A program made the position numbers and the translations under genes. From a bacterium HR10 (GTDB taxonomy: Bacteria > Acidobacteriota > Blastocatellia > HR10), in contig BEHM01000001.1 of the NCBI GenBank assembly GCA_002923315.1, positions 56,506-120,505 on the forward strand: a stretch of 64,000 nucleotides of DNA. Reading direction: 5' to 3'. Every line of letters starts with the position of its first letter. Position 1 is the stretch's first letter. Below, piece by piece: positions 20,215 to 37,013 of this stretch. The notes under the pieces are model-generated. The model saw nothing but the letters and a program-made list of their open reading frames with translations. It was not told where the DNA came from and made no database searches.

Positions 20215-21033
20215 ATGAGGCGGCGAACATGCGCCTTTGTATTGGGTCTCAGTCTGGGCATTGGGGGAGCGCTGCTCGGAGCGCGCCTCGGAGGGGCATC
20301 CCCCCTTCAGGGAAGTGCGCAGGCGGAGAATTCGTGCGTGACGTGTCATCAGCGGATCACAACCCCGCTGGAGTTGAGTCAGCGGTATTACGATTGGCAC
20401 CTCTCGGTCCATAAGGAGAGAGGGGTTACCTGTGACGTCTGTCATGGGGGGGATCCTCGGGCGCGACAGGCGCAGGAGGCTCATCGCGAGATGCGCGCCT
20501 CCTCCGATCCACACAGTCGGGTGCATGGGAAGCATCAGCCGGAGACCTGCGGCGCGTGCCATCAAGAGGTGCGCACCGCTTATCTGGCGAGCGCGCACTT
20601 TGCGAAGCTCAGCGCGGCGGGTCTGGGACCGTTCTGCAGCACGTGCCATCTGCAGATGGCGAACGCGACGGTCCGGAGTGCCATTGACGTCAGCGCACTC
20701 TGCGGCCGCTGCCACAACGCCGAAGGAGGGATCATGCCGCCGAATCCGCAGCTCATCAAGAGCGCGCAGGAGACGCTCCTAAGCCTGAGTCGGGCCAACG
20801 GGGTGATCATCTGGGCGGATCGCCTCATCGAAGCGGCCGAGGGGAAGAACCTCACCATCGCCGAGGAGCGGCGGGAGTTAGAGGCGGCTCGAAAGCTCCT
20901 GCAAGAGGCGAAGTGGGAGTGGCACGCCTTCCGCCTGGAGCCCGTGCGGGCGAAGGCCGATCGCGCCTTCGAGCAGGGGGCGAAGGTGAAAGATCGGTTG
21001 CTGCAGAAGGTCTATCCGGGGTCGCGTCCATAG
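20215..21033 (+). CDS. periplasmic pentahaem c-type cytochrome
   Basis: The start is MRRRTCAFVLGLSLGIGGALLGA (signal peptide), preceded by GGAGGGA. There are five CxxCH motifs: CVTCH, CDVCH, CGACH, CSTCH, CGRCH. Confidence 0.7.
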   Translation: MRRRTCAFVLGLSLGIGGALLGARLGGASPLQGSAQAENSCVTCHQRITTPLELSQRYYDWHLSVHKERGVTCDVCHGGDPRARQAQEAHREMRASSDPHSRVHGKHQPETCGACHQEVRTAYLASAHFAKLSAAGLGPFCSTCHLQMANATVRSAIDVSALCGRCHNAEGGIMPPNPQLIKSAQETLLSLSRANGVIIWADRLIEAAEGKNLTIAEERRELEAARKLLQEAKWEWHAFRLEPVRAKADRAFEQGAKVKDRLLQKVYPGSRP

Positions 21034-21163: not shown

Positions 21164-21745
21164 TCAGGATGAGGACCGTCGCAAGGGCCTCGATTCGGGA
21201 GCGAGTCGCGCGAGAGCCTCCTCGACGAGGCGCCGACAGGAGGGGCAGAAGGCGTTCGATTTGATGTCCACGTGCTCGATGGAGTTTGAGAAGTGCATGA
21301 CGCAATCGAAGGTCGAGCAGTGGATGAGACCGAACGTGTGTCCCAACTCATGGAGCGCTTCCTTCTCGCAGCGCTCCAGGAAGAGTCGGCGATCCTCCGG
21401 CAGGCCGTAAAAGCGCTGGTCGAGCCGATGGACTGAGAGCACGGCCGCCGCTCCCCCAAGCTGCGCCTCCCCAAAGACGAACGTGAGGATGGGGATGAAG
21501 AGGTCCACGTCCGTCACGCCGAGCACCTTCACGGCGGGATTTCGGTGCCCTCGAACCAGTTGCGCGAGCAGCGTCGTGGAATGGTACTGCTGGCGGAGCG
21601 GGTGATAGGCGGCGTCCAACTCGATCGGATGGTCACGAATGCGACAGGAGACGGGGAGCGTCTCCGGCAAGACGAGCGCGAGGAACTCGAGGACGTCCGT
21701 GTCCACGTTCCCGATCGGGACCAGCTCGATGAGCGCCCGCGACAC
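21164..21745 (-). CDS. amzA: archaemetzincin-family zinc metalloprotease
   Basis: The sequence HELGHTFGLIHCSTFDCVMH...(16)...CPSC fits the archaemetzincin signature HExxHxxGx3Cx4CxMx17CxxC. Its start lies 12 bp downstream of the sigma-54 activator gene. Confidence 0.65.
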   Translation of the reverse strand: MSRALIELVPIGNVDTDVLEFLALVLPETLPVSCRIRDHPIELDAAYHPLRQQYHSTTLLAQLVRGHRNPAVKVLGVTDVDLFIPILTFVFGEAQLGGAAAVLSVHRLDQRFYGLPEDRRLFLERCEKEALHELGHTFGLIHCSTFDCVMHFSNSIEHVDIKSNAFCPSCRRLVEEALARLAPESRPLRRSSS

Positions 21746-21757
21746 GATCGCTCCTCG

Positions 21758-23119
21758 TCATACCGGCGAATCGGGTTTGAGCTGATACTTGCGAATCTTA
21801 TTGTAGAGCGTCACGCGATCAATGCCGAGCAACCGCGCGGCCTGCGAGATGTTCCACCTCGTCTCCTGCAGGATCCGCTGGATGTGCTGCCGCTCGACCT
21901 CGGCGAGCGTCTTTCCCACCGGCTGTCCGCGCGCTTCGTTCACCTGCAAGGGCAGGTCTTCGGGGCGGATCTCCCGTCCGCGGCAGACGAGCACCGCGCG
22001 CTCGATGGCATTTTGCAGCTCGCGCACGTTTCCCGGCCAGTCGTAGCGCTCCAACAGCGCCAGGGCTTCGGGCGAGATGCCGAGGATCGGCTTGTTCATG
22101 CTCTGCGCGAACTTCTTGAGGAAATGCTCGGCCAGAAGCGGGATGTCCTCCCGCCGCTCGCGCAGCGGCGGGATGGTGATGGAGAAGACGTTGAGGCGAT
22201 AATACAGGTCCTCGCGGAATCTCCCCTCGGCGACCAGGGCTTCCAGGTCTTTGTTCGTCGCCGCGATCAGACGGAAGTCCACGGGGATCGGCGTATTGCC
22301 GCCGACGCGAAAGATCTTCTTCTCCTCGAGCACGCGCAGCAGATCCACCTGCGTCTTGAGGCTGATGTCGCCGATCTCGTCCAGAAAGAGCGTCCCTCCA
22401 TCGGCCAGCTCGAATTTCCCCTTGCGCCGATAATGGGCGCCGGTGAAGGCGCCCTTCTCATGGCCGAACAGCTCGCTCTCGATCACCCCTTCGGCCAGAG
22501 CGCCGCAGTTGACGATGACGATCGGCATGTAGCGGCGGGGACTGTTGGCGTGAATGGCGCGGGCGACCAACTCCTTGCCCGTCCCGCTCTCCCCGCGGAT
22601 GAGGACCGTCGTATCGGACATGGCGACGAGGCGAATCTGTTCGAGCACTCGCTGAATGGCTGCACTCTGTCCGACGATCTCATGGAACAGCGCCATCTCC
22701 TGAATCCGCTCGCGCAGCCGGACGTTCTCGGCCACCAAGCGCTTCCGCTCGACGGCGTTTCGGATGATGTGCTCCAGCTGATCGGGATCGAAGGGCTTCA
22801 CGATGTAATCGTAAGCACCCTGCTTCATCGCCTCCACGGCCGTTTCGACCGAAGCGTAAGCCGTCATGATGATGATGGAGGCCTCCGGGGCGATCTCCCG
22901 AATGCGCCGCTGCAGTTGCAGTCCGTCCATTCCGGGCATCTTGATATCAATGAGGAAGATGTCGTAGCTCGACTCGGCCAGCTTCTGCAAGGTCTCCTTC
23001 CCCGATCCGGCGACGTCCACCGTGTATCCCTCCTCGCGGAGCCAGTTCCCCAGGGATTCCCGCACGATGGCCTCGTCGTCCACGATCAAAATGCGGATCG
23101 CGCTTTTGGATACCGTCAT
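21758..23119 (-). CDS. sigma-54-dependent response regulator (NtrC/ZraR family: REC-AAA+-HTH)
   Basis: It has a receiver (ILIVDDE...), an AAA+ Walker A (GESGTGKE), the sigma-54 contact motif GAFTGA, and a C-terminal Fis-type HTH. A 4-bp overlap with the upstream kinase gene indicates coupling. Confidence 0.9.
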   Translation of the reverse strand: MTVSKSAIRILIVDDEAIVRESLGNWLREEGYTVDVAGSGKETLQKLAESSYDIFLIDIKMPGMDGLQLQRRIREIAPEASIIIMTAYASVETAVEAMKQGAYDYIVKPFDPDQLEHIIRNAVERKRLVAENVRLRERIQEMALFHEIVGQSAAIQRVLEQIRLVAMSDTTVLIRGESGTGKELVARAIHANSPRRYMPIVIVNCGALAEGVIESELFGHEKGAFTGAHYRRKGKFELADGGTLFLDEIGDISLKTQVDLLRVLEEKKIFRVGGNTPIPVDFRLIAATNKDLEALVAEGRFREDLYYRLNVFSITIPPLRERREDIPLLAEHFLKKFAQSMNKPILGISPEALALLERYDWPGNVRELQNAIERAVLVCRGREIRPEDLPLQVNEARGQPVGKTLAEVERQHIQRILQETRWNISQAARLLGIDRVTLYNKIRKYQLKPDSPV

Positions 23120-24798
23120 AGCCTGCTCTCCATGTGGTGAGGCGCGTCTCCGGAGAAGACCTCGAAGGCGCGATCAGTCTGATCCTCCGCTCCCGTCGGC
23201 GGGGTGAGTGGGAGCCGGAGGGTGAACGTCGTCCCGTGCCCGAGCGCGGACTGCACGTGGATATCCCCCCCGTGCCGGTGAAGGATGCTGAGCACGACGG
23301 AGAGCCCGAGGCCGAGGCTCCCCTCCTTCTCCTTCGTCGTGAAGAAGGGTTCGAAGATGCGCCGTTGCGTCTCTTCATCCATCCCGACGCCGTTGTCGCG
23401 GATCGCGATCTCAACCCGCTGCGCCTCAGGGAGGAAACGCGAGGTGACGGTGAGCATGCCTTCTTCTGGCCGCACCGCTTCGCAGGCATTGATCAGGAGC
23501 GCGACCAGCGCTTGCCGCATCTGCTGTCCGTCGCAGACGACGGGCGGCACGTCCGGATCGAGTTGAACCTCCGTCTGCAGGCTCATCAGCTCGATCTTAT
23601 GCTGAATCAGGCGGAGCGATTGACGGATGAGTTCGTTGACATCATGCGGCTGGAAGTGCGCGCGCGAGGGGCGGACGAATTGCAAGAGGTTCTTCACGAT
23701 CTCCCCGCAGCGGGCCGATTCGCTGGCGATCATCTCCAGATACTGGCGCGCATTGGCGAGGTCCTCGGGCGAGAACCCGTGATCCCCCATCTTCTTGAGC
23801 AGGAGCTTGGCGGTCGTGAGGATGCCGGAGAGGGGGTTGTTGATCTCGTGAGCGACGATGGCGGCGAGTTTCCCGATGGAGGCCATGCGCTCGGCGTGCA
23901 TCATCTGCTCGTGCGTGCGTCGCAGCTCGGCCGTCTTCTCCGCCACGCGCTCCTCCAGGGTGCGCGCCCAGCTCGTCAGCTCCTCATGAGCGCGCTTCAA
24001 CTCCTCGGTCATGGCGTTGAATGACGCCGCCAACTCGCCCAGTTCGTCCCGCGCGGTGAGCGGGATCTTATGGTCGAGGTCGCCAGAGGCGACGCGCTCG
24101 GTCCCCCGCTTCAGGTGCCGGATCGGGACATGGATCATCACGGCGGTGACGGCCACGACAACGAGCGCGACAAAGAGGATGCTCCCCAGGAAGAGGAAGA
24201 AGAGCTGGCGCTGCCCTTCCGCGATGGCCGCGTCCACCGGGGCGAGCGAGAGCGTCACGTCCAACACGCCGAGCACCGATTGCGCCGGCGAGTGCGCGTG
24301 GCAGGAGGCCGTGTAACATCCCGGTTCGTTCTCAATGGGATTGATGAGTCCCAAGATGCGCTCTCCGCGCTCTCCGAGGTACACGCGGACGCGATCCGGA
24401 CGATCCAGGCGAACAAGCGGCTGCTCCTGCGCATGGCAGCCGTAGCAGGCCTCGGCGCGCTTGTCCACGAACGTATTCACCTCGCGCGCATCAGTGGAGA
24501 AGCTGATCCGACCCTCTTTGTCGAAGATGCGGATCTTGTGAATCCCGGGCTGCGCGCCGATGGTGAGGAGCGTGTGATAGATCTCATCCCGATGGTTCTG
24601 CAGCATGCTGTAGCGGAGCCCCCGCTTGATGACGTCGCTCGTGCGATCCGCGCTGGCGATGGTCATCTGCTCCAGGTCGCGCTTGTGCAGCCGGAGGGTT
24701 TGGTAGCCGAGCAGCGAGAAGACAAACGCCATGCTCGCGATGAGCCAAAGGGTCAGCTTCACGCTCACGCTCGATGTCCAGCGTCGCCACCCCCTCAT
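23116..24798 (-). CDS. sensor histidine kinase with haem-c-motif periplasmic domain (NtrB/ZraS-like HisKA)
   Basis: I chose the start at MRGWRRW (24798). The roughly 170-aa periplasmic segment between its two TM helices contains CYGCH (CxxCH) and CYTASCH (Cx4CH). It also has HAMP, an H-box (AHEINNPL) and HATPase_c. Confidence 0.8.
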   Translation of the reverse strand: MRGWRRWTSSVSVKLTLWLIASMAFVFSLLGYQTLRLHKRDLEQMTIASADRTSDVIKRGLRYSMLQNHRDEIYHTLLTIGAQPGIHKIRIFDKEGRISFSTDAREVNTFVDKRAEACYGCHAQEQPLVRLDRPDRVRVYLGERGERILGLINPIENEPGCYTASCHAHSPAQSVLGVLDVTLSLAPVDAAIAEGQRQLFFLFLGSILFVALVVVAVTAVMIHVPIRHLKRGTERVASGDLDHKIPLTARDELGELAASFNAMTEELKRAHEELTSWARTLEERVAEKTAELRRTHEQMMHAERMASIGKLAAIVAHEINNPLSGILTTAKLLLKKMGDHGFSPEDLANARQYLEMIASESARCGEIVKNLLQFVRPSRAHFQPHDVNELIRQSLRLIQHKIELMSLQTEVQLDPDVPPVVCDGQQMRQALVALLINACEAVRPEEGMLTVTSRFLPEAQRVEIAIRDNGVGMDEETQRRIFEPFFTTKEKEGSLGLGLSVVLSILHRHGGDIHVQSALGHGTTFTLRLPLTPPTGAEDQTDRAFEVFSGDAPHHMESRL

Positions 24799-24814
24799 GT
24801 CCCCATCCCTGTAT

Positions 24815-26392
24815 TCACGGCCGATGACACACCGCGCATTCCTCCTGCGCGCTGAAGGAGGTCTTCCCGTCATGACATCGTCCGCAATGTCGCGCGTCGT
24901 GCCAGTCGCGCGCGGGACGCGACGAGGCCTCCCCCTCGACCTTCAGGATGTGGAACGGCTCACGATGACACACGGTGCAGTCCGGTCGCTCCCAGTTGAT
25001 GTGCGAAGCATGTCGGAACGTGACCGGCCCCGGGCTCCCCTCCCCCTGCGGGAACGTGACGTCCGGTGGGATGTTCAATCGTTCCAGCCCTTCGGCGATG
25101 TTCGGCTCTTCTTCGAGGCGAGACGGAGAGGCGAGAGCCCGCTCGCGATAGGACAGGCCGCTGTAGGCCACGCCGAGGGCGCCGAAGAAGACGATTCCGC
25201 CGAGGATCAGGATCAGAGGTGTCGTCCCGATCCACGGTCTTCGGAGAACGGCGACGGCCGGTGGGACTGCGACCTCCCGCTCCATCTCCGGAAAGACGGG
25301 CAGATATTTCACCGCCAACCCGAACAGGGCGAATCCCAGTGCTACGATCATGAAGGTCACCGAGAGCTCGGTCCAGCTTGGGAAGTACGAGACGCCGGAG
25401 GAGGCCTCCATCCCCGTGATGCTCACGTTCAACCGGTTCATGATGAAGCCCAGGACGACCAGGAGGGCGGAGACGAACAGGCCGAAATGGTCCGTCCGAA
25501 CGCGGCGCACGCTCAGCAGCAGCATGGGACCGATCACGCCGAGCATCATCTCGGCCAGGAACATCCGCGCCTCGTAGGTCGGCTCCAAGACGTGAGCGAG
25601 TGCACCGCGCCCGACCAGATCCTGAACCTTCAGCACCAGATACACGGCCAGCGCGACGACGATCACTTTGCCCAGATCGGTGAGCAGATCAATCTCCAGT
25701 CGTTTCCGGAATGCCCGGTAGCTCAGGAACGACTCGAAGATGGTCATCGCGCACCCGAGCGCGATGGCCGAGATGAAGAAGAAGACGGGCAGAAGCGGCG
25801 AGTACCAGAGCGGATGCAGCTTCTCCGGCACGATCAGATAGAGCGAACCGAGCGAGGATTGATGAAGCGTCGAGAGGATGACGCCGAGAATGACCAATGG
25901 TACCGTCAGCGCGTGCAGGATCCGAAGTGGCCTTTGAAGTCTCAAGCGCTCGAACACCATGGGGCTGAATTCCAGTGCGAGCACTGTCGTGTAGAGCATG
26001 ACGCACCAGGCCACCTCGAACATCACCGAGTGGGGATTCCACATGACCAGCGGATGCCAGATGCGATACGGGCGTCCCAGATCAAAGAGCAGGGCCACAA
26101 TGACCAGCAGGTACCCGAGGAAGGCCGTGAGGATCGTCGGGCGAATGATCGGGCGAAATCGCTCGATGTTGAAGATGTAGACGACGGCGCTGATGGTGAA
26201 TCCTCCGGCGGCCAGCGCGACCCCGCAGAGGACGTCGAAGCCCACCCACAGGCCCCATGGGAAGGCATCGCTCAGGGCCGTGCTCGCTCCCAATCCTCCG
26301 GTGAACCGGACGACCGTGCTGTAGAGGCCGGCACCCAAGATGACCAGAAACACCAGCTGCCAGAAACCAGGCCGTCGCAGGCGCCACCTCAT
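24815..26392 (-). CDS. NrfD/PsrC-family polytopic membrane subunit fused to a C-terminal cytochrome c7-like trihaem domain
   Basis: I chose the start at MRWRLRRPGFW (26392), preceded by AGGGAGG. It has about 10 TM helices of the NrfD type. The C-terminus (VTFRHASHINWERPDCTVCH...CGRCH...CAVCH) resembles PpcA-type trihaem cytochromes. Confidence 0.7.
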   Translation of the reverse strand: MRWRLRRPGFWQLVFLVILGAGLYSTVVRFTGGLGASTALSDAFPWGLWVGFDVLCGVALAAGGFTISAVVYIFNIERFRPIIRPTILTAFLGYLLVIVALLFDLGRPYRIWHPLVMWNPHSVMFEVAWCVMLYTTVLALEFSPMVFERLRLQRPLRILHALTVPLVILGVILSTLHQSSLGSLYLIVPEKLHPLWYSPLLPVFFFISAIALGCAMTIFESFLSYRAFRKRLEIDLLTDLGKVIVVALAVYLVLKVQDLVGRGALAHVLEPTYEARMFLAEMMLGVIGPMLLLSVRRVRTDHFGLFVSALLVVLGFIMNRLNVSITGMEASSGVSYFPSWTELSVTFMIVALGFALFGLAVKYLPVFPEMEREVAVPPAVAVLRRPWIGTTPLILILGGIVFFGALGVAYSGLSYRERALASPSRLEEEPNIAEGLERLNIPPDVTFPQGEGSPGPVTFRHASHINWERPDCTVCHREPFHILKVEGEASSRPARDWHDARHCGRCHDGKTSFSAQEECAVCHRP

Positions 26393-26471
26393 ACCTCCCT
26401 CCTTCGCCAGACCGCATCCGTCGCGCGAGTGGCACGCGCGAGGAAGCCGGATCTCCCTTTGCGTCGAGCCG

Positions 26472-27305
26472 TCATGACGAATTCGTTGAGTCGGATGCCG
26501 AGGATGATCCCGATGGCTCCGGGAGATCACGCGGCGGTTCTCCGGAGTCGCGTCCTCGCTCCTGGCGCTCTCGGCGTTGCACCTCTTGGCGCCGATTCGT
26601 GATCCACCAGATGCCTCCGAGCAGAACGCCCCCGACGATGACGAAGTTGGGGATCTTCTGCAAGACCTGCCACGTCAGCAGGGGGAGCGGCTCCCGGAGC
26701 AGATCCGTTCGGTAGCCCAGGCGCTCGAACGGGACATCCGAGAGCAGCAGGACCGAGGTTCCACCGACTTCCTCCAGGCCGTAAATCCTCGGCACGTACT
26801 TCTGCGGGTGAGCGCGAAGTCGCGCGCGGGCCTCCTCGATCAGCTCCTGACGATCCCCGAACTTCGTCGCTCCCGTGGGACAGACTTCGGCGCATGCCGT
26901 CGGTCGCCCTGCCACGAGGCGATCGGCACACAGATCGCACTTTCGGATGCGCGGCAGGATCTTCCGCCACTCATACTTCGGGATCCCGAAGGGGCATGCC
27001 AGCATGCAATAGCGGCATCCGATGCACCGCTCTTCGTGATAGATGACCGGGCCGGCCGCCGTCTTCTCCAACGCGCCGACCGGACAGACGGACGCGCACG
27101 TCGGGACCTCGCAGTGCATGCAGAGCTGGCGGACGAATCGTCCCCCGCGCTTCTTCACGACCGTATAGGTTTGGTCCGACAGCCGATCCTCCAAAAAGTG
27201 CGTCGCTGTCGGGGGGAGCCGGTTCCGCTCCTTGCACGCTTGGTAGCAGGCGCCGCATCCGATGCACAAGGTCGCATCAAAGAGGAGGCCCTTTTTGCTG
27301 CCCAT
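26472..27305 (-). CDS. 4x[4Fe-4S] ferredoxin-type subunit (NrfC/HybA/PsrB-like) with a C-terminal TM anchor and no signal peptide
   Basis: There are four Cys clusters (CIGCGACYQAC, CMHCEVPTCASVCP, CIGCRYCMLACP, CDLCADRL...CAEVCP) and a C-terminal helix (IVGGVLLGGIWWI). The start is the second ATG (27305), 6 nt after GGAGG. Confidence 0.8.
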   Translation of the reverse strand: MGSKKGLLFDATLCIGCGACYQACKERNRLPPTATHFLEDRLSDQTYTVVKKRGGRFVRQLCMHCEVPTCASVCPVGALEKTAAGPVIYHEERCIGCRYCMLACPFGIPKYEWRKILPRIRKCDLCADRLVAGRPTACAEVCPTGATKFGDRQELIEEARARLRAHPQKYVPRIYGLEEVGGTSVLLLSDVPFERLGYRTDLLREPLPLLTWQVLQKIPNFVIVGGVLLGGIWWITNRRQEVQRRERQERGRDSGEPPRDLPEPSGSSSASDSTNSS

Positions 27306-27555
27306 ACGCATCCTCCACTAGGAGGCGATGCAATTTCCATTCCACGCCTGGATCGTGAGGTCGCTTTCAGCAGCCGGCCACTGAGAGCCGTCCGGTCAAG
27401 CGGTTACAGCAGGGTGGCTCCCTCCTCTCATCCCCCGCGACTGCGCGCGAGGGAGAGGGGTGGGGCAAATCACTCGCTTCCTGAGGCGCGATTCGCGCCT
27501 CCGGCGAGGCTTCGACCTCAAGTGAGGGTCGGCAAAACGCCTTCCTTCGCTCGCT

Positions 27556-28248
27556 TCACCCCTCGGCTGGATGCGGGCTGCGCAGGAATGTTCGGGTGAA
27601 CTCCTCCCAACTGGCTTCATCCAGAGCCTCCAGGACGCCATCGGTCCACTGCCCGCCGTCCTGCAGGACGTGTCCGAGAGCCGCCTGCGGCATCGGCCGC
27701 CACGTGAGGAACTCCTTGAAGCGTTCGATCTCGCACTGGAGCCACGCCCGAGCTTCCTCGGCGACCAGCAGATGGCGTAAGTGCGCCGCCAGGTTCTTCG
27801 GCGTCAGCGTGCAGATCCATCCATCTTCGTACGGATCCATTCGCCCCGTCTCTGGCTGGCGCATGAGGATCTCATTGACCGCGCTCACCACTCCATCGAG
27901 CGGGGCGCGGAAGACGGCCCGTCGGCCCCCCTGCGTGATGGCGAAGAGCGGATCACCCCGCCGCACCATGACGCCGACTTTCGGCAAGTCCACGGCATCC
28001 ACGCGCCCGATGGCTCGACGCGCGAACTCATCCATGCCGACGAATGTCCGTCCGCTCGGTTCCAGGCGCACCCACGTGTGCCCTTCGTCCAGGAAGAGAC
28101 CGGCAGGGATGGAGACGGTCTCGAAGGCGAGCGTCGGACGCAGCGCCGGTCGCCTCACGGGACGTCCCTGTCGGGCCTCAGCCCATTGGACGACGGAATC
28201 CACGAGGATGAATCCGATGATCGTGAGAATGACAAAGAGAGCGACCAT
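27556..28248 (-). CDS. membrane-anchored glycine-cleavage-H-like (GcvH-fold) protein without the lipoyl-lysine
   Basis: It has an N-terminal TM (MVALFVILTIIGFILV). The GcvH-like core reads HTWVRLE...VGMDEFA...VDLPKVG...PYEDGWICTL. The position aligned to the lipoyl-Lys (ESVKA in GcvH) reads TQGGRRA. A strong RBS (GGAGGTGA) precedes the start. Confidence 0.6.
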   Translation of the reverse strand: MVALFVILTIIGFILVDSVVQWAEARQGRPVRRPALRPTLAFETVSIPAGLFLDEGHTWVRLEPSGRTFVGMDEFARRAIGRVDAVDLPKVGVMVRRGDPLFAITQGGRRAVFRAPLDGVVSAVNEILMRQPETGRMDPYEDGWICTLTPKNLAAHLRHLLVAEEARAWLQCEIERFKEFLTWRPMPQAALGHVLQDGGQWTDGVLEALDEASWEEFTRTFLRSPHPAEG

Positions 28249-28251
28249 AGT

Positions 28252-29184
28252 TCACCTCCTCTCCGGAGATCGCCTCCGAGGCGCACTCACCGTGCGCCCG
28301 ATCCGTGGCTGCAAGAACCGCGCGATCACCTGTTCCCATCGCGCGGGACCAAGGACTTCCATGAGCGATTCCATCGCAGCCCGCGTCAGCATCTCCTGCG
28401 CCGTGCACTCCCCTTCAAGGGGAACGCCCCCATCTTGGAGCGTGCGGCCTGCGGCAGAGACTTCTGGGGGCGTCCCCAAAGCGCGCAAGGCCGCGCGAAC
28501 CGCTCGGTGCAGCTTCGAAACTTCCCGCTCATACCAAGAACGCGCCTGCTCCCCATAGAGCAGGTGCTTCAAACTCTCCCGCAAACGTTCCGGTCGCAAC
28601 AGTAGCAGCCATCCGTCCCCATACGGATCGTGATTGATGAGGGAGGGGTATCGCGTGAGCCGCTCGTTGAGCTGAAGGATGACACCCGTCAGAGGAGCGG
28701 ACAGAATGATCTCCCCGGCCTGATGCGCCAGCTTACCCAGCGGGCGTCCGGCGATCACGCGCGCGCCCACTTCCGGAAAGCTCACCTGATAAATCCGCCC
28801 GAGGAGCTTCTGTCCGAAATCATCCAGTCCGATTCGCACGTCCCCCCGCCGCTCGATGCGCGCCCACACATGCGTCGGATGGTAGAAGAGCGCCTCCGCC
28901 ATGTGGAAGCCACCTCGGCTGAAGAGGCGGTGAGACGCCGTGCGCTCACCGTGAGATCGTGAGCTTCCCTCCTCACCGGCGATCTCCCTCGTCCGCTCCC
29001 GAAGGGCGCGGTCAAAAGGGCAATGGTCGCATTCGTAGTCGCGATCGCAAAGTTTGTAGTCCACGATCCCCGCCAACATCCACACGCACTGGAGCACGGG
29101 AGCAGCACCCTCGCGCTCGATGGAGAGCGGATGAGCTCCAGGGCCGGTGGCCTCGGTCGGTCCTCTCGACAGCACCTCGTCCAT
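28252..29184 (-). CDS. GcvH-like protein with an N-terminal Cys-rich motif
   Basis: I chose the start at ATG 29184 (MDEVLSRG), preceded by GGGAGGG. The Cys motif is CVWMLAGIVDYKLCDRDYECDHCPFD, followed by a GcvH-like core (THVWARIE...IGLDDFGQKLLG...HDPYGDGWLLL). The raw ORF start at 29331 is a TTG inside a regulatory palindrome, which is why I rejected it. Confidence 0.55.
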   Translation of the reverse strand: MDEVLSRGPTEATGPGAHPLSIEREGAAPVLQCVWMLAGIVDYKLCDRDYECDHCPFDRALRERTREIAGEEGSSRSHGERTASHRLFSRGGFHMAEALFYHPTHVWARIERRGDVRIGLDDFGQKLLGRIYQVSFPEVGARVIAGRPLGKLAHQAGEIILSAPLTGVILQLNERLTRYPSLINHDPYGDGWLLLLRPERLRESLKHLLYGEQARSWYEREVSKLHRAVRAALRALGTPPEVSAAGRTLQDGGVPLEGECTAQEMLTRAAMESLMEVLGPARWEQVIARFLQPRIGRTVSAPRRRSPERR

Positions 29185-29210: not shown

Positions 29211-29226
29211 GGCAATCGATGTGCCG
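29211..29226 (-). promoter_or_regulatory. candidate sigma-54 promoter (minus strand: CGGCAC-ATCGA-TTGCC) for the GcvH-like operon
   Basis: On the minus strand there is GG at -24 and GC at -12 with 5-nt spacing. The predicted TSS is near 29200, about 16 nt before ATG 29184 and spanning its RBS. Confidence 0.4.
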
Positions 29227-29317: not shown

Positions 29318-29332
29318 GTTGAATTCTTCAAC
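29318..29332. promoter_or_regulatory. palindromic operator/enhancer site 1 (GTTGAA-TTC-TTCAAC)
   Basis: A perfect 6-3-6 inverted repeat. The extended 18-bp sequence CGTTGAATTCTTCAACGC is identical to site 3. Confidence 0.45.
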
Positions 29333-29384: not shown

Positions 29385-29399
29385 GTTGAAGAATTCAAC
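29385..29399. promoter_or_regulatory. palindromic operator/enhancer site 2 (GTTGAA-GAA-TTCAAC, the reverse-complement form)
   Basis: A perfect inverted repeat. Its centre is 67 bp from site 1 and 22 bp from site 3. Confidence 0.45.
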
Positions 29400-29406
29400 A
29401 CCTGTC

Positions 29407-29421
29407 GTTGAATTCTTCAAC
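29407..29421. promoter_or_regulatory. palindromic operator/enhancer site 3 (GTTGAA-TTC-TTCAAC)
   Basis: A perfect inverted repeat, about 61 bp upstream of the -24 element of the plus-strand sigma-54 promoter. Confidence 0.45.
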
Positions 29422-29474: not shown

Positions 29475-29490
29475 TGGCATGCGGCTTGCA
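29475..29490 (+). promoter_or_regulatory. sigma-54 promoter TGGCAT-GCGGC-TTGCA for the C_GCAxxG-dihaem gene
   Basis: A near-consensus -24 (TGGCAY) and -12 (TTGCA) with 5-nt spacing. The predicted TSS is near 29500. RBS GGAGGGA lies at 29524-29530 and ATG at 29537. Confidence 0.5.
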
Positions 29491-29536: not shown

Positions 29537-30340
29537 ATGAGGAAGACGCTGACGCGAAAAGAGTTCCTCACGTTGACGACCAAATGTGCCACATGCGCCG
29601 CCGTCGGTGCAGCTGGGCTGAGCCTCCTCGGAAGGGAAGGGATCGCCCAGATGGATCTTCCGCCGTGGCCGTGGCCCTATCGAAAGCTCGATCCCGAGTA
29701 CGTGCGCAAGCTCGGGCACGAGGGGTATTGGGAGAAAGGATATGGCTGCGCCTATGGCGCTTTCAGAGCCATCATCATCCCATTGCGCGAGGCGGTCGGG
29801 TATCCCTATACGATGATCCCCACGGAGCTCATGATCTGGGGGCACGGGGGCGTCGTCGGATGGGGCGGAACGTGTGGGGCGCTCCTTGGGGCCAGCGCCG
29901 CTATTCAGCTCGTGTGCGATAAGCCGACGGCCGATCGGCTCATCCATGAATTGCAGGGGTGGTACACGCAAGCGCTCCTGCCGACGGACATCAGCAACGA
30001 GTACGCGCAGACAGGGCAGTTCTTCGTCCAGAAGTACACGCGACCACTCCCGCAGAATGCCGCAGGCTCACCCCTGTGTCACATCTCGGTGACCTTGTGG
30101 TGCGAGCGTTCGGGATTCACCGCTTCCTCACTTGAACGCAAAGAGCGCTGCGGCCGGCTCACAGGTGATGTCGCCGCTCGCGCCGTGGAGCTATTGAATC
30201 AATGGGCTGATGGTCAATTCCAGAGCATCTATGTCCCACCGGAGTCCATCGCGACCTGCCTCACGTGTCACGGGGATAAGGGGCTGGACAACGTGAAGGC
30301 CAAGATGAACTGCACGCAGTGCCACGCGCCGCATCCGTGA
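29537..30340 (+). CDS. C_GCAxxG_C_C-family putative redox protein fused to a C-terminal dihaem cytochrome c, with a Tat-like (RK) signal peptide
   Basis: The signal is MRKTLTRKEFLTLTTKCATCAAVGAAG. The family motifs are GYGCAYGAF and GGTCGALLGA. Two CxxCH motifs (CLTCH, CTQCH) sit in the last 40 aa. Confidence 0.65.
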   Translation: MRKTLTRKEFLTLTTKCATCAAVGAAGLSLLGREGIAQMDLPPWPWPYRKLDPEYVRKLGHEGYWEKGYGCAYGAFRAIIIPLREAVGYPYTMIPTELMIWGHGGVVGWGGTCGALLGASAAIQLVCDKPTADRLIHELQGWYTQALLPTDISNEYAQTGQFFVQKYTRPLPQNAAGSPLCHISVTLWCERSGFTASSLERKERCGRLTGDVAARAVELLNQWADGQFQSIYVPPESIATCLTCHGDKGLDNVKAKMNCTQCHAPHP

Positions 30341-30483: not shown

Positions 30484-32331
30484 TTAGGAGACTCCTCGAA
30501 CGGGGGGCGCGCTCCCGTTCAGGAGCGCTTCATCGGGGAGCTCCAGTCGGAGCTCTTGGAGGCTTCCGAGCAAAAGCTCACGCACTTCGGCAGAGCGTGA
30601 GGCGGCGAGCGCCTGGCGAACGACCTCGCGCACGCGCGTCAGCTCGCATGCTCGCACGAAGTCCTTGATGAGCGGGATCGCGCGCGGGCGCATGCTCAAG
30701 ATACGGGCTCCCAAACCCAGCAGGACCAGCGCATGCAGCGGATGCGCGGCCATCTCGCCGCAGACTTCAAGGGGGCGGCCTGCGCGCTCGGCCGCCTGGA
30801 TCACGTGCCGCAGAGCGCGCAGCACGGCCGGATGCAGCGGATCATAGAGCGAGGCCACGCGATCGTTATCCCGATCCACCGCCAGCAGGTACTGGATGAG
30901 ATCGTTGGTCCCCAGGCTGAGGAAATCCGCCACGGCAGCCAGCTCATCGGCGAGCCACACGGCGGCAGGCGTCTCGATCATCACGCCCACGGGAAGACGA
31001 TCCGGCGCGGCGATCCCTTCTGCGCGCAGTTCACGGCATGCGGTCTGAAGCAGGTGTCGGACCTGCTCGACTTCCTCCAAACTCGTGATCAGGGGGAGGA
31101 CGAGGCGCAGATTCCCGAAGGCGGCGGCCCGCACGATGGCGCGCAATTGGGTTTTGAGAACCTCCGGCGCGCGCAGCGAGAACCGAATGGCGCGGAGCCC
31201 GAGCGCCGGATTCCGCTCGGGGAGCCATGGCTCCGAAGACTCGGACTCCATCTGCCGGTCGCGCAGCGCATGAAGGGTGCCGAGCGCGGCCATCTGATTT
31301 TCGTCCCAATCCACCGTGCGAATGGCGACCCCGTCGCGCCCGGCCACTTCCGCGGCCTGACGATACGCCTCCAGTTGCAGCTCTTCCGAGGGCAGTTCCG
31401 GAGCTGCCTGCAGGAAGAGAAATTCCGTGCGGAGCAAGCCAATCCCGCATGCGCCGAAACGGTGCAGGTCATCCAATTCAGAGAGACGCTCGATGTTCGC
31501 GCGGATGGTGATCGGAACGCCGTCGCGCGTCATCGTGGGGAGAGGGGCGCGTGCCTGCCATCGGATCCAATGCTGTTCGCGCTCCTGGCGCTGCCGCTCA
31601 TAATGCTGAAGGACATCTGGGGAGGGACGGACGAAGACGAGCCCTCGCGTCCCATCCACGAGGACGAGCGCCTGATCTTCGATCTGCGCGAGCGCCCCAC
31701 GAAGACCCGATACGGCCGGGATGCCCAGCCCACGGGCGAGAATGGCCACGTGCGACGTCCATCCCCCTGTGCCGAGGATCAAGCCCGCGATGCGCTGCGG
31801 ATCGAGTTCCCCAAGCAGGCTTGGCGGGAGCGTCTCGCTCACCAGGACCGCACTCTCCGGAAAGGCGCAGGTGGAGCGGTCCCCCGAGAGCACCCTGAGC
31901 AATCGGTTCGCCACATCTTCGATATCACTGCCACGCTCGCGCAAATCATCGTCCTTGATCTCCGCATAGATGGCCAGGATGCGATCAGTGACCAGTTTCA
32001 CCGCCCATTCGGCGTTGACGGCGTTGGTGCGGATGAGGCTTTCGATCTCGCCGAGGATCCCCGCATCCTCCAACATCAGCACGTGCGCATCCAGGATATA
32101 GGCGTGTTCTTTCCCCAGGGCGTGCTCCATGCGTTGCCGCAGGACGCGCAATTGCTCGCGCGCGATGCCCACGGCCTTGTGGAAGCGGGCCACCTCGGAC
32201 TCGATCTCCTGAGGAGCGAGCCGCCGGCGGAAGATCACTCGTCCGCGCCAAGGCGAGTGCACGGCCGGTCCCCACCCGATCCCCGGCGAGATGCCCAGTC
32301 CGCGGAGTATGATCTCCGAATTCGCCGTCAC
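30484..32331 (-). CDS. ptsI: phosphoenolpyruvate-protein phosphotransferase (PTS enzyme I)
   Basis: Full-length EI similarity, with the active His context GGWTSHVAILARGLGIPAV and a PEP-utilising C-terminal domain. Confidence 0.9.
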   Translation of the reverse strand: MTANSEIILRGLGISPGIGWGPAVHSPWRGRVIFRRRLAPQEIESEVARFHKAVGIAREQLRVLRQRMEHALGKEHAYILDAHVLMLEDAGILGEIESLIRTNAVNAEWAVKLVTDRILAIYAEIKDDDLRERGSDIEDVANRLLRVLSGDRSTCAFPESAVLVSETLPPSLLGELDPQRIAGLILGTGGWTSHVAILARGLGIPAVSGLRGALAQIEDQALVLVDGTRGLVFVRPSPDVLQHYERQRQEREQHWIRWQARAPLPTMTRDGVPITIRANIERLSELDDLHRFGACGIGLLRTEFLFLQAAPELPSEELQLEAYRQAAEVAGRDGVAIRTVDWDENQMAALGTLHALRDRQMESESSEPWLPERNPALGLRAIRFSLRAPEVLKTQLRAIVRAAAFGNLRLVLPLITSLEEVEQVRHLLQTACRELRAEGIAAPDRLPVGVMIETPAAVWLADELAAVADFLSLGTNDLIQYLLAVDRDNDRVASLYDPLHPAVLRALRHVIQAAERAGRPLEVCGEMAAHPLHALVLLGLGARILSMRPRAIPLIKDFVRACELTRVREVVRQALAASRSAEVRELLLGSLQELRLELPDEALLNGSAPPVRGVS

Positions 32332-32618
32332 GATCCCAATCGCTCCTCCTCTTCACCGAATTTCGACTCGATCAACCGGCAGATGGCTTCGATCGCCTCC
32401 ACCTCGTCCTCTCCGGATGTGGTGATGTCCAGATGCGTCCCCGCCGATGCCGCCAGCAGCAGGACGCCGAGGATGCTCTTGGCGTCCGCCGTCTGTCCCG
32501 TATCGGAGCGGGCGAGCGTGATCGCGCTGCGGAACCGATTGGCCGCCTGCACGAGCTTGGCGGCTGCGCGCGCATGCAATCCCAGACGGTTGGCCACCTG
32601 CACCGTTCGTCGCTGCAT
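32328..32618 (-). CDS. ptsH: phosphocarrier protein HPr
   Basis: An His15 context (NRLGLHARAAAKL) and a Ser46 region (GQTADAKSILGVL). Confidence 0.85.
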   Translation of the reverse strand: MQRRTVQVANRLGLHARAAAKLVQAANRFRSAITLARSDTGQTADAKSILGVLLLAASAGTHLDITTSGEDEVEAIEAICRLIESKFGEEEERLGS

Positions 32619-32624
32619 CGCCGG

Positions 32625-33038
32625 CTATCGCTTCGCGGGCGTGAGGATCTCGCTGGCCAAATAGATGTTCTTCTGCCCCTGTTCTTTGACCTTGCGCGCT
32701 ACGGTGAGCAGATCGTCGTTCGGGTCTTGATTGGCGAGCTTGAGAATCATGGGCAGATTGACGCCGGTGACGATCTCCACCGGCTCGACGCCCAGGAAGG
32801 TGGCCGCGATATTGGTCGGCGTTCCTCCGAACATATCCGTCAGCAACAGCACGCCGCGCCCGCTGTTGACCCGCTCGATGGCCCGACGGATCGTCTCGCG
32901 CGCGACCTCCACATCATCATGCCAGCCGATGGAGACGGCCGTGATGTGGCTGATCTGACCGACGATCATCTCCGCGGCGTTCACCAGTTCCGTGGCCAGT
33001 TGTCCATGCGTGATGACGACGCCTCCGATGAGTCCCAT
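32625..33038 (-). CDS. PTS EIIA component, mannose/fructose family
   Basis: The sequence MGLIGGVVITHGQLA...LTDMFGGTP is the EIIA-Man fold with the phosphorylatable His in ITHG. Confidence 0.8.
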   Translation of the reverse strand: MGLIGGVVITHGQLATELVNAAEMIVGQISHITAVSIGWHDDVEVARETIRRAIERVNSGRGVLLLTDMFGGTPTNIAATFLGVEPVEIVTGVNLPMILKLANQDPNDDLLTVARKVKEQGQKNIYLASEILTPAKR

Positions 33039-33173
33039 CCTGCTTCCTCCGGCGTCGGCGAAGCGACGAACCGCTCGCCTCCCCGACGCATGCGCTCGAG
33101 CTCCGTGCCTTCCGTGCTTTCTTATTGTACCTCAAGGCGTCGGCTCGCGTCCTCATCGGGAGCTGCCGTGTGC

Positions 33174-34049
33174 TCAGAGTTTGTCTATATCCCGGTGCGT
33201 GACGCGAAGCTTATAGCCCTCGCGTCGCAGCACCCGCGCCAGCTCCTCGACGATCATCACCGACCGGTGGCGTCCTCCCGTACACCCGATCCCGATCGTC
33301 ACATAGCTTCGTCCCTCGCGCTGGTAACGCGGAAGAAGGAATCGGAGGAGGTTCTCCAGGTGCGCGATGGTCTCCATCGTATCCGGGTGCGCGCGCATGA
33401 AGTCAATGACGCGCGCATCTTGTCCCGAGAGCGGGCGCAGCTCGGGCACAAAGTGCGGGTTCGGCAGGAAGCGGACATCAAAGAGCAGGTCCAATCCCGG
33501 GGGAACGCCATGCTTGAACCCGAAGCTGAGGAGCGTGACCGTCATCTCCAGCAGCGCGTCAGCAGTGCCGAAGCGTTCGATCACGTAGCGGCGCAGCGTG
33601 TGCACCGTGTGCTCGGACGTGTCAATGATGAGGTCGGCGCGAGCGCGGATCTCTTGCAACGCCTCCCGTTCGCGCGCGATGGCCGTGGGCAGGTCCGTCT
33701 CGGCGTCGGCCAGCGGATGCGGACGTCGCGTCTCGGAGAAACGGCGCAGCAGGACCTCGGGGCTCGCCTCGAAGAAGATGATCCGCACGTTGGTCCCTTG
33801 CCGCCGCAACTCGTCGTAGAGGCGGGGGAAATCGGGGAGGAATTGGCGCTCGCGGATGTCAATGACGATGACGGCGCGACGGAGCGTCTCCGCGCTGGCG
33901 CGACACAATTCCACAAAGGGGGGGATCAGGTGAATCGGCAGATTGTCCACGCAGAAATATCCGAGGTCCTCGAAGGCCTTGACCGCCGAGGTCTTCCCCG
34001 AACCGCTCAAGCCTGTGAGGATGAGGATGTGAGGGGAAGCGAAAGCCAT
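33174..34049 (-). CDS. rapZ: RNase adapter protein RapZ (YhbJ)
   Basis: A Walker A (LTGLSGSGKTSA) and C-terminal GCTGGRHRS, the typical RapZ signature. Confidence 0.85.
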   Translation of the reverse strand: MAFASPHILILTGLSGSGKTSAVKAFEDLGYFCVDNLPIHLIPPFVELCRASAETLRRAVIVIDIRERQFLPDFPRLYDELRRQGTNVRIIFFEASPEVLLRRFSETRRPHPLADAETDLPTAIAREREALQEIRARADLIIDTSEHTVHTLRRYVIERFGTADALLEMTVTLLSFGFKHGVPPGLDLLFDVRFLPNPHFVPELRPLSGQDARVIDFMRAHPDTMETIAHLENLLRFLLPRYQREGRSYVTIGIGCTGGRHRSVMIVEELARVLRREGYKLRVTHRDIDKL

Positions 34050-34052
34050 GCG

Positions 34053-35015
34053 TCACGAGGATTCGAGCGCGTCCCCGGCGACCAGCGCATCGTGCGCGCG
34101 CACGAACTGCCGCATCGCATCAATGCCCCGGCGTTTCAACAGGTGATTGCGCACGGCCACCTCGACGAGCGTCGTGAGATTGCGCCAGAACGTGACGGGA
34201 AGGCGAATCAGGGGGATCGAGATGTCCAGCAGGCGGAGCGTCTCCTCCTGCAAGCCCAGGTGGTCATAGTCTCGCTGCGGATCCCAGCGCTCGAACGCGA
34301 TGGCCAGATCCACCGAGGCTTCTTCGGCGAGCGCCGCGACGCCGAACAATTCTCGAATGTCCAGGATGCCGAGCCCCCGGATCTCCATGTGCCCCCGCGC
34401 GCGTTCCGGAGCCAGGCCGATCAACCGATCCGATCCGATGGCGCGCACCTCGACGACATCATCGGCGACGAGCCGATGCCCGCGCTGAATGAGATCGAGC
34501 GCACATTCGCTCTTGCCCAGTCCGGATTCGCCGAGCAGCAATACGCCGACGCCGAAGACCTCGACCAGGACGCCGTGCATCCAGCACCGGGGGGCGAGAA
34601 CCCGCTGCAGAAACTCCGTGAGCTTCAGAATCGCCGTCGAGCTGAGGCGCGAGGAGACCAGGACCGGAACGCGATGCCGCTCGGCCGCGTGGAGGAATTC
34701 CGGCGGGGGGGTGAGCCCCTTGGTCACGAGGACGCACGTGATCGCCTCCCAGGGGAGGTGCTCGATGGCGCGGTGTCGCTCCGCCGGCGAGAGATGGTGC
34801 AGGAAGGTCACCTCGCTCTGCCCCACGATTTGGATCCGCCCCGCGTGCACATAGTGCGTGAATCCCGCCAGCGCCAGCCCGAGCTTTTGAATGCGCGGCG
34901 AGCGGATCGTCCTGGTCACACCCTCAGCGCCGACGATCACGCGCAAGTCCAGATCGGCTGGCGCGCCGGTGAGCAGCTCGGCGACGGTGATCTCGGGCGT
35001 GAGGGGAGCGGTCAT
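34053..35015 (-). CDS. hprK: HPr kinase/phosphorylase
   Basis: I chose the start at MTAPLTPEITVAEL (35015), preceded by GAGGG. It has a Walker A (GESGLGKSE) and the HprK signature LVADD...EIRGLGI. Confidence 0.85.
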   Translation of the reverse strand: MTAPLTPEITVAELLTGAPADLDLRVIVGAEGVTRTIRSPRIQKLGLALAGFTHYVHAGRIQIVGQSEVTFLHHLSPAERHRAIEHLPWEAITCVLVTKGLTPPPEFLHAAERHRVPVLVSSRLSSTAILKLTEFLQRVLAPRCWMHGVLVEVFGVGVLLLGESGLGKSECALDLIQRGHRLVADDVVEVRAIGSDRLIGLAPERARGHMEIRGLGILDIRELFGVAALAEEASVDLAIAFERWDPQRDYDHLGLQEETLRLLDISIPLIRLPVTFWRNLTTLVEVAVRNHLLKRRGIDAMRQFVRAHDALVAGDALESS

Positions 35016-35022
35016 CGCGCCC

Positions 35023-35538
35023 TCAGGGTTCGATGAGTCCGAGGTGACCATCGGTGCGCTTGTAGAGGACGGCCACCCGATCGGTCTCCGCATTGCGGAA
35101 GACGAGGAAGTGATCGTTCGATTTCAAGAGCAGCTCGGCCGCCTCGTCCGGCGTCAAGGGCTTCACCGAATATCGGGGCGTGCGCACGATGCGCACCTCT
35201 GGCGCCGAAGATTCCGCGGGCAACGTCTTCACGAGCTTGCGCGTCGCCCGTCGGCGGGCCGCGAACTTCTCCTTCTGCTTGAGCGTTTGTCGCAGGAGGC
35301 GATCAATGGCCTCGGTGACCGAGCTGTAGAGGTCGTCCGTCTCGGCCGTCCCCGTGAACTGATGATCTCGCCAGGTGACGAGGATCTCCGTCAGGAACCG
35401 ATGCTTCTCAGCAGCGAGGATGACGTGCACCTTGGCCGCGTCATCGAGGACGCGGCCGATCTTCTCCAGTGCCCGCCGAAGGCGCTTCTCGATCGTGGGC
35501 GTCAGCTCCACATTTCGCGTCGTGAGTTCCAGATTCAT
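35023..35538 (-). CDS. hpf: ribosome hibernation promoting factor (long form)
   Basis: The N-terminal sigma-54-modulation-protein fold (MNLELTTRNVELTP...) plus a C-terminal dimerisation extension. Its start overlaps the rpoN stop (ATGA). Confidence 0.85.
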   Translation of the reverse strand: MNLELTTRNVELTPTIEKRLRRALEKIGRVLDDAAKVHVILAAEKHRFLTEILVTWRDHQFTGTAETDDLYSSVTEAIDRLLRQTLKQKEKFAARRRATRKLVKTLPAESSAPEVRIVRTPRYSVKPLTPDEAAELLLKSNDHFLVFRNAETDRVAVLYKRTDGHLGLIEP

Positions 35539-37010: not shown

Positions 37011-37013
37011 AGC

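Follow-up and report, generated by a model that had tools for sequence, protein, structure and literature searches.

Paired GcvH-like proteins without the lipoyl-lysine, encoded beside a sigma-54 two-component system and an NrfD-type quinone module

Here, we describe a locus of bacterium HR10 (Acidobacteriota), analysed within a stretch of 64,000 nucleotides that we call the window. Two adjacent minus-strand genes, P2 and P1, encode proteins that resemble the H protein of the glycine cleavage system (GcvH) and lack its lipoyl-lysine. P2 is 100% identical to a 'bacterium HR10' protein from a hot-spring metagenome-assembled genome (MAG), and the closest relatives of both proteins come from Blastocatellia and other Acidobacteriota. 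The pair heads a tightly packed minus-strand row that continues with genes for an iron-sulfur (Fe-S) protein, an NrfD-type membrane protein with a c7 domain (NrfD-c7), a histidine kinase, a sigma-54 activator and an archaemetzincin (Table 1). Only 3 nt lie between P2 and P1, and the Shine-Dalgarno sequence of P1 sits inside the end of P2; the two genes are predicted to be translationally coupled. The coordinates given for the pair in a preliminary description of this DNA, 27556-29184, are correct.

That description had read a GcvH fold in both proteins, and the fold is borne out by domain search, structure prediction and structure comparison. Pfam GCV_H (PF01597) matches P1 with E=3.4e-20 (72.6 bits) and P2 with E=8.6e-22 (77.8 bits), both above the gathering score. 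AlphaFold2 models built on family alignments have an overall pLDDT (predicted local distance difference test) of 83.4 for P1 and 77.6 for P2, with the barrel above 90 in both. In Foldseek comparisons, the barrels superimpose on the H-proteins of E. coli, T. thermophilus, cow and human with TM-scores of 0.91-0.93 and root-mean-square deviations (rmsd) of 1.0-1.5 Å (for P1 against 3a8j_E, 0.92 and 1.3 Å). The GcvH motifs H-x-W, G-x-D, V-x-LP-x-G and PY-x-x-GW are kept along with the barrel-sandwich fold. Unlike GcvH, to which they are about 30% identical, P1 and P2 carry an added N-terminus (a transmembrane helix or a Cys4 motif) and a C-terminal extension of 60-90 residues. Their scores against the NCBIfam GcvH models, 66-82 bits, are far under the cut-offs of TIGR00527 (115.85) and NF002270 (117); indeed, no NCBIfam model is passed by P1, P2 or their distant relatives.

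A further difference is at the site of lipoylation. When P1 is aligned with solved H-proteins, the lipoyl-lysine pairs with the second Gly of TQGGRR; in P2, it pairs with the Ala of HQAGE. The same column holds D, N, E or G in the P1 family (K in 8/121) and A, S or G in the P2 family (K in 0/101), and in a broader set of family members it is mostly D, A, G or S, with K in 11/481. Three independent alignments concur on this placement: the pairwise HMMER alignments, the MAFFT alignments made separately for the two families, and a further one, also by MAFFT, of the 481 members. Aligning the proteins with GcvH was the check that the preliminary description had proposed, and its proposal that TQGGRRA replaces the lipoyl-lysine site in P1 stands, with Gly108 in the column. 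For P2 it had pointed to GKLAHQAG with a displaced Lys. A Lys does lie there, 5 residues N-terminal of the column, but it is not conserved, K occurring at that position in just 6/101 relatives. As judged from these alignments, neither P1 nor P2 can be lipoylated at the canonical site, and canonical H-protein function is excluded because the lipoyl-lysine is missing. No gcvT, gcvP, lpd, lipoate ligase or biotin ligase gene was found among the scanned open reading frames (ORFs) of the window or among the recurrent neighbour families, and the window has no hdr genes; the context is a sigma-54 regulatory and respiratory one instead of gcvTP.

P1 and P2 differ from each other mainly in their N-terminal modules. 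The transmembrane helix of P1, claimed already in the preliminary description, is supported by the AlphaFold2 model and is as conserved as the barrel: columns M1, F5, V6, T9 and D17 are invariant, and Q21 is nearly so. P2 has no transmembrane segment, and the earlier view that both proteins are membrane-associated can be demonstrated for P1 only. P2 has instead the Cys-rich motif that had been noticed before, with a first spacer of X12 rather than X13. Each of its four cysteines is retained in 88-94 of 101 relatives, and the motif occurs once in 117 family members and twice or more in 53. The Cys4 segment alone has no match in Pfam, NCBIfam or the PDB sequences and fits no known cluster motif; it probably binds an Fe-S cluster or Zn.

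What unites the two proteins, besides the barrel, is the helical extension that follows it, with a loop of the form G-x-[TV]-[LM]-Q-D-G-G. We call this QDGG loop invariant; the motif was found in 346 of the 481 members scanned. The loop has low pLDDT in both models, and the extension alone gives non-significant matches only (E >= 0.13) to Pfam, NCBIfam and PDB sequences. An hhalign comparison of the P1 and P2 families spans 192 columns, the extension included, with a probability of 100 and E=2.5e-44. P1 and P2 are paralogues of one family, which we name GcvH-DGG. The N-terminal modules vary across this family: the P1-type transmembrane helix; a second transmembrane type (FATKGxEYLL...FW); one, two or four Cys4 knuckles; a transmembrane helix plus Cys4; CPFL...YC repeats; and a unit of one 2Fe-2S and two [4Fe-4S] ferredoxin domains preceding a Cys4 knuckle. 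Apart from these, an 87-residue ORF with one transmembrane helix and a DGG-loop-like 'GVTMADGGEE', without a barrel, is present at L002 (4070-4333, +) and L003 (1751-2014), where it immediately precedes a family member of the Bryobacteraceae Qrc-like operon described below.

The family is large. When 1.84 billion cluster representatives (50% identity) were searched with a profile, at least 1,554 proteins were returned at E<=1e-30. A scan of GTDB with one genome per species gave 311 loci, of which 80 were kept, and these span Acidobacteriota, Desulfobacterota, Nitrospirae, Zixibacteria, Gemmatimonadota, Eisenbacteria and others. In databases, proteins of this kind are named 'glycine cleavage system H protein'. 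Neither the family nor its gene set is described in the full-text literature of the library searched, and within that library no curated model, structure or paper covers them.

To see what travels with the family, the window proteins were searched against the ORFs of 84 related loci, 49 of which are complete (at least 4.5 kb on either side of P2). The most constant neighbours of P2 are a histidine kinase, an NtrC-type activator and an archaemetzincin (peptidase M54): activator and M54 peptidase are near P2 in 42/49 complete loci, as is a histidine kinase, also in 42/49. This adjacency holds with or without NrfC-like and NrfD genes (NrfCD), across Acidobacteriota, Desulfobacterota, Nitrospirae, Zixibacteria, Gemmatimonadota and Eisenbacteria. 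NrfCD are near P2 in 12/49, and all 12 of these loci also have the regulator set; 6/49 have neither, and in 37/49 P2 has no NrfCD within about 8 kb. The preliminary description had suggested checking co-occurrence with the NrfD-c7 module; the cytochrome/Fe-S module is not the most constant partner. NrfCD-containing loci come from five or more phyla and show several gene orders. With HK for the histidine kinase and RR for the response regulator, Acidobacteriota have P2-P1-FeS-NrfDc7-HK-RR-M54; most Desulfobacterota have HK-RR-M54-P2; Syntrophales have FeS-NrfD-P1-P2 convergent with HK-RR-M54; some Desulfobacterota and Nitrospirae have P1-FeS-NrfD-P1'-P2-HK-RR-M54; and L010, L040 and L053 have P2-P1-HK-RR-M54, with no NrfCD. 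P1 is present exactly where the kinase is of the type with two transmembrane helices and periplasmic CXXCH (20/20 loci), and P2-only loci have soluble PAS/GAF kinases.

Sigma-54 control, which the preliminary description had assigned to this cytochrome and Fe-S operon, is upheld at the level of prediction by a -24/-12 element before P2 and by three palindromes, both conserved elsewhere. The sigma-54 pattern is not above chance in the window as a whole (39 matches against 47.7 expected), and therefore only sites backed by position and conservation were used. P2 is preceded, at a constant offset, by an element with the GG/GC core (<=2 mismatches) in 67/83 loci, where chance would give 0.066 per 350 nt. 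GTTGAA-N3-TTCAAC is matched three times in the 64-kb window, even when two mismatches are allowed (0.61 expected), and each match falls between P2 and the divergent split-Soret-cytochrome-like gene. Palindromes of this type are present upstream of the element in 37/83 loci, where 0.068 per 450 nt would be expected. The palindrome type is GTTGAA-N3-TTCAAC in Acidobacteriota and GCCGAA-N3-TTCGGC in Desulfobacterota. The occurrence of orthologous activators, with related sites before the same gene in two phyla, argues that P2 is a conserved direct target of the NtrC-type regulator, as far as promoters can be read from sequence. The window holds an rpoN gene as well as the activator gene. A scan of the locus for sigma-70 promoters and terminators gave nothing above shuffled controls.

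Natural fusions join the family to kinase and redox domains. In protein P0266 (505 residues), a complete P2 module (Cys4, barrel and QDGG extension) is directly joined to the H-box and ATPase of a kinase (HisKA, HATPase_c); it was found on two independent contigs assembled separately from two samples. P0367 has the same build and is 70% identical over the junction region used as query, and both fusions are preceded by a P1-like gene. At four loci (L031, L051 and L065/L078, the latter two from one MAG), Fer2_4 and two Fer4 domains precede Cys4, barrel and DGG in proteins encoded directly upstream of an ordinary P2. P0244, from Anaerolineae, has three Lys-less barrels followed by a GlcD-like flavin adenine dinucleotide (FAD) oxidase, a ferredoxin domain and two CCG domains. 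Apparent P2-P1 fusions (a single ORF at 7956-9491 of L013; protein P0251) were not taken to indicate a complex. Frameshifts or indels in the assemblies probably produced them, because the internal transmembrane helix would leave the P2 and P1 parts on different sides of the membrane and because the sister locus L015 has two overlapping genes.

Table 1. Genes, protein motifs and candidate regulatory sites of the locus, with positions in the window
Feature	Position	Strand	Description
P2	28252..29184	-	310 amino acids from MDEVL; cytoplasmic; disordered N-terminus, Cys4 knuckle, Lys-less GcvH-like barrel, C-terminal helical extension
P2 Cys4 motif C33-X12-C46-X5-C52-X2-C55, CVWMLAGIVDYKLCDRDYECDHC	29020..29088	-	Probable Fe-S or Zn site; checked by translation
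P2 hairpin GKLAHQAGE	28711..28737	-	Ala156 in lipoyl-lysine column (HMMER alignments to 1onl, 1dxm, 3ift)
P2 DGG of G-x-T-L-Q-D-G-G loop	28426..28434	-	D251, G252, G253 invariant or near-invariant
P1	27556..28248	-	230-amino-acid paralogue; N-terminal transmembrane helix, Lys-less GcvH-like barrel, same C-terminal DGG extension
P1 transmembrane helix VALFVILTIIGFILVDSVVQWAEARQ	28168..28245	-	AlphaFold2 helix, residues 2-27; strongly conserved
P1 hairpin TQGGRR	27919..27936	-	Gly108 in lipoyl-lysine column (HMMER alignments to 3a8i, 1onl)
P1 DGG (VLQDGGQ)	27652..27660	-	D197, G198 invariant, G199 near-invariant; checked by translation
Sigma-54 -24/-12 element CGGCACATCGATTGC	29212..29226	-	28 nt upstream of P2 ATG
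Sigma-54 -24/-12 element TGGCATGCGGCTTGC	29475..29489	+	Faces the divergent split-Soret-cytochrome-like gene
Three perfect GTTGAA-N3-TTCAAC palindromes	29318-29332, 29385-29399, 29407-29421	.	Candidate enhancers for the NtrC-type activator, flanked by two divergent sigma-54-like promoters
Possible internal sigma-54 element TGGAATGGAAATTGC	27330..27344	-	P1/Fe-S gap; same offset in 6/19 loci; weak evidence
HybA/HmcB-like four-cluster Fe-S protein	26472..27311	-	C-terminal transmembrane helix, no Tat signal; Pfam Fer4_11
NrfD/HybB/HmcC-like quinone-interacting membrane protein with C-terminal triheme c7 domain	24815..26530	-	Pfam NrfD, Cytochrome_C7; NCBIfam HmcC 6.8e-104
HAMP histidine kinase	23116..24873	-	Two transmembrane helices and periplasmic domain; Pfam; motifs CYGCH, CYTASCH
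NtrC-type response regulator / sigma-54 activator	21758..23119	-	REC, AAA+, HTH_8; Pfam Sigma54_activat 1.3e-71
Archaemetzincin (peptidase M54)	21164..21745	-	HEXXH and Cys4 motif intact; Pfam 8.6e-29
Split-Soret cytochrome c-like protein, divergent	29537..30340	+	C_GCAxxG_C_C domain and 2 CXXCH; Tat-like TRKEFL signal; Pfam, NCBIfam

Downstream of P1, a gap of 244 nt precedes the Fe-S gene, whose product scores 1.7e-76 against NCBIfam HmcB and 1.4e-63 against HybA, both under the cut-off. The NrfD-c7 protein has three CXXCH motifs, at residues 518, 549 and 565. The kinase has CYGCH (residue 143) and CYTASCH (residue 186) between its two transmembrane helices, which suggests a periplasmic sensor domain with c-type heme. 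The archaemetzincin passes its NCBIfam model (archmetzin, 175 bits against a cut-off of 145). The M54 gene directly follows the activator in 43/49 complete loci, and the orthologues beside the family keep HEXXH in 64/64 and, in 62/64, the whole motif that PMC13325395 quotes for archaemetzincins.

The Fe-S subunit lacks a twin-arginine translocation (Tat) signal in the window and in every Acidobacteriota and Eisenbacteria orthologue (N-termini compared at L004-L024 and L039), and its Nitrospirae and Desulfobacterota orthologues (L025, L026, L058) have the classical RRxFLK signal. From the C-terminal transmembrane helix and the Arg-rich tail, we predict that the Fe-S domain of the signal-less subunit is periplasmic. 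The split-Soret cytochrome-like protein encoded by the divergent gene could be the Tat-carrying partner of this subunit. That gene was found only in the closest relatives (L005-L008); it has a sigma-54-like promoter of its own, and the three palindromes are common to it and P2.

Two further features of the window may be recorded. A cluster of lptB, rpoN, hpf, hprK, rapZ, EIIA-Man, HPr and ptsI (30484-37817, -) lies directly beside the sigma-54 locus. A pentaheme c-type cytochrome ORF (20023-21033, +) has a sigma-54-like site, CGGCACAATGGTTGC, at 20042-20056, about 160 nt before the likely start; we left this site out of the regulon because no palindrome is nearby.

How might these elements work together? 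P1 and P2 are probably redox adaptors or sensors rather than glycine-cleavage proteins, because the family occurs together with a sigma-54 two-component regulator, a protease and, in many cases, a membrane quinone module. The specific explanation that we favour, tentatively and at a little less than an even chance, is that P2 and P1 form a sigma-54-induced, lipoate-free redox-sensing accessory of the kinase/activator pair, tied to the NrfC/NrfD-c7 quinone module. The H-protein barrel has lost its lipoyl-lysine and gained the QDGG extension and a variable N-terminal module. In the scheme that we favour, the sigma-54 promoter would drive a bicistronic P2-P1 unit, activated by the NtrC-type regulator encoded downstream through the GTTGAA-N3-TTCAAC sites, and the heme-bearing kinase would sense the periplasmic redox state. 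P2 and P1 would form a complex at the cytoplasmic face of the membrane, with P1 as the tether, the barrel as a protein-interaction scaffold rather than a cofactor carrier, and P2 as a metal (probably Fe-S) redox element. This complex may act as an induced input or feedback element of the kinase/activator pair. Where the NrfC/NrfD-c7 quinone module is present and co-expressed, the complex would be functionally linked to it and might dock on NrfD. The archaemetzincin would be a candidate for turnover of the accessory.

Several observations weigh against this explanation. A gene that the regulator simply targets, and whose function is unrelated, would also be expected to adjoin the regulator genes. 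Kinase fusions are rare, amounting to 2 clusters among the 1,554 or more, and the Cys4 region of the P2 model is of moderate confidence only (pLDDT 64-69). No sigma-54 element was found upstream of the NrfCD-first operons of Desulfobacterota/Syntrophales (L026, L028, L045, L058, L086). Finally, a Qrc-like operon of one Bryobacteraceae genome (cytochrome c, Tat-signalled MopB-like protein, Fe-S protein and NrfD) has a family member on either side and no two-component system nearby, which favours a subunit of the complex over an accessory of the regulator.

It is also possible, if somewhat unlikely, that P1 and P2 belong to NrfC/NrfD-type quinone oxidoreductases of the Hyb, Hmc or Qrc kind as genuine subunits at the cytoplasmic face, with a structural, gating or electron-input role, and that the two-component system only regulates them. 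The Bryobacteraceae operon speaks for such subunits, as does the apparent co-transcription with FeS-NrfD, which recurs across at least five phyla in four gene orders (P2-P1-FeS-NrfD; FeS-NrfD-P1-P2; P1-FeS-NrfD-P1'-P2; GcvH-cyt c-MopB-FeS-NrfD-GcvH). The ferredoxin and CCG/FAD fusions point to electron transfer, and the polar residues T9, D17 and Q21 in the conserved P1 helix suggest a specific helix-helix contact. The neighbouring Fe-S and NrfD genes are homologous to HybA/HybB, HmcB/HmcC and QrcC/QrcD, with the c7 triheme domain in the part of the cytochrome subunit, although the Fe-S subunit of the window differs from HybA, HmcB and QrcC in having no Tat signal. To our knowledge, no GcvH-like subunit has been described for these complexes, and none was found in the literature searched. 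A dedicated subunit is opposed by the 37 complete loci in which P2 has no NrfCD nearby, by L010, L040 and L053, where P2-P1 is followed directly by the kinase, and by the kinase fusion. NrfD proteins are not known to carry a transmembrane redox cofactor (Psr, ACIII and Qrc structures), so that a cytoplasmic Fe-S protein would lack an evident electron path to the periplasmic Fe-S subunit. The two readings, subunit and redox-sensing accessory, are not fully exclusive.

A role for the protease could be more direct. P1 and P2 might be substrates or partners of the archaemetzincin, cut at the exposed QDGG loop so that the protein is activated or removed by regulated proteolysis. We consider this quite unlikely; it is compatible with the redox-sensing accessory that we favour. 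The constant position of M54 after the activator and its intact active-site motif agree with it, as does an invariant DGG within a low-confidence, presumably flexible loop in both models. However, the family members of the Bryobacteraceae operon keep DGG with no M54 gene nearby, and we know of no endopeptidase specificity, nor of any physiological substrate, for archaemetzincins. The loci contain no E1-like or other ubiquitin-like machinery, which counts against this reading as well. A ubiquitin-like role for the internal GG was itself considered and rejected, there being no E1-like gene among the recurrent neighbour families.

The preliminary description had proposed that the proteins are scaffolds, carriers of a swinging-arm-like cofactor, or pseudo-carriers. 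Scaffold and pseudo-carrier agree with the data. That P1 and P2 carry a swinging-arm or buried cofactor, attached away from the canonical Lys or held non-covalently in the H-protein cleft, is very unlikely. The cleft fold is wholly retained, and some hairpin positions are conserved: in P1, Q106 never varies and position 109 is R or H throughout, and in the P2 family C149 (65%) and H154 (73%) are frequent. Nonetheless, the family alignments of P1 and P2 show no conserved Lys, Cys or other nucleophile at or beside the hairpin tip, and P2 of the window lacks the C149/W150 of many relatives. The absence of lipoate and biotin ligase genes noted above points the same way.

Genes of the Hdr type, which lend this carrier reading some support by recalling LbpA with sHdr, deserve comment. 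In Desulfobacterota, an HdrL-like NfnB-HdrA fusion is encoded near the family at 29 loci, an HdrD-like CCG protein at 13 and MetF at 11. Often P2 is followed by an HdrL-like fusion of 1,250-1,470 residues and MetF; alternatively, P2 faces the HdrD-like CCG protein, which is followed by 2-oxoacid:ferredoxin oxidoreductase genes (L042, L063, L073, L082 and L041, L044, L064 exemplify these Hdr-like neighbourhoods). We gave these neighbours less weight because the Desulfobacterota loci concerned are phylogenetically close, and their presence may reflect shared genome ancestry rather than a functional link.

That P1 and P2 are ordinary glycine-cleavage H or lipoyl-relay proteins, as their database names and the Pfam GCV_H match would have it, can practically be dismissed, being already refuted by the missing lipoyl-lysine unless three concordant alignments err, and opposed as well by the sub-cut-off NCBIfam scores, the extra transmembrane, Cys4 and C-terminal domains and the lack of gcvT, gcvP and lpd among the scanned ORFs of the window.

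Some known systems help to place the redox-sensing accessory that we favour. LbpA, the lipoate-binding protein of sulfur-oxidising sHdr systems, keeps its Lys and needs dedicated lipoylation enzymes. Like LbpA, a GcvH-like protein recruited from one-carbon metabolism into a respiratory Hdr-type cluster, P2 of Desulfobacterota stands beside HdrL- and HdrD-like genes; unlike LbpA, P1 and P2 lack the Lys, ligase genes are absent nearby, and Hdr-like neighbours are confined to Desulfobacterota loci. Another divergent paralogue of the H protein, GcvH-L of the SirTM/macrodomain operon in Firmicutes, has a role that is regulatory and unconnected with glycine. It is both lipoylated and ADP-ribosylated, it lacks the N- and C-terminal modules of P1 and P2, and its structure (PDB 5a35) is their weakest GcvH-type structural match (E=4.7e-6 and 1.0e-5). 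As for the regulatory side, ZraP with ZraSR, CpxP with CpxAR and DegP, and MgrB with PhoQ are induced accessories that feed back on their own kinase; ZraP is sigma-54 dependent and binds metal, and CpxP is removed by a protease. As in those systems, the accessory gene here adjoins two-component genes and is predicted to be their main target. The folds are unrelated, however, and the known accessories are periplasmic or membrane-embedded. Feedback of P1 and P2 on the kinase is suggested on two grounds, synteny and the kinase fusion.

A more far-reaching version of the redox-sensing explanation, which we regard as unlikely in its entirety, is that the GcvH-DGG module represents a new cytoplasmic redox-signalling domain. 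An Fe-S cluster at the Cys4 motif, or electrons from a fused ferredoxin, would alter the binding of the barrel and QDGG loop to the kinase or to the NrfD module; the state of the quinone or ferredoxin pool would thereby be reported to the sigma-54 activator, and the archaemetzincin would reset the system by cleaving the DGG loop. If such cleavage does occur, the cleaved protein would be the first physiological substrate of bacterial archaemetzincins.

Finally, our results bear on how GcvH-like genes are read. At least 1,554 protein clusters (50% identity) across Acidobacteriota, Desulfobacterota, Nitrospirae and other phyla are labelled GcvH although they are predicted to be unable to carry lipoate, and this label can misdirect metabolic reconstructions from MAGs, such as those of glycine cleavage or the reductive glycine pathway. 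The locus also reveals an undescribed conserved gene set, in which kinase, sigma-54 activator, archaemetzincin and GcvH-DGG protein, with or without NrfCD, tie a regulator to respiratory quinone modules. GcvH-DGG proteins are, in addition, a first testable partner for bacterial archaemetzincins. More generally, the family provides a clear example of a cofactor-carrier fold that was reused once its cofactor site had been lost.

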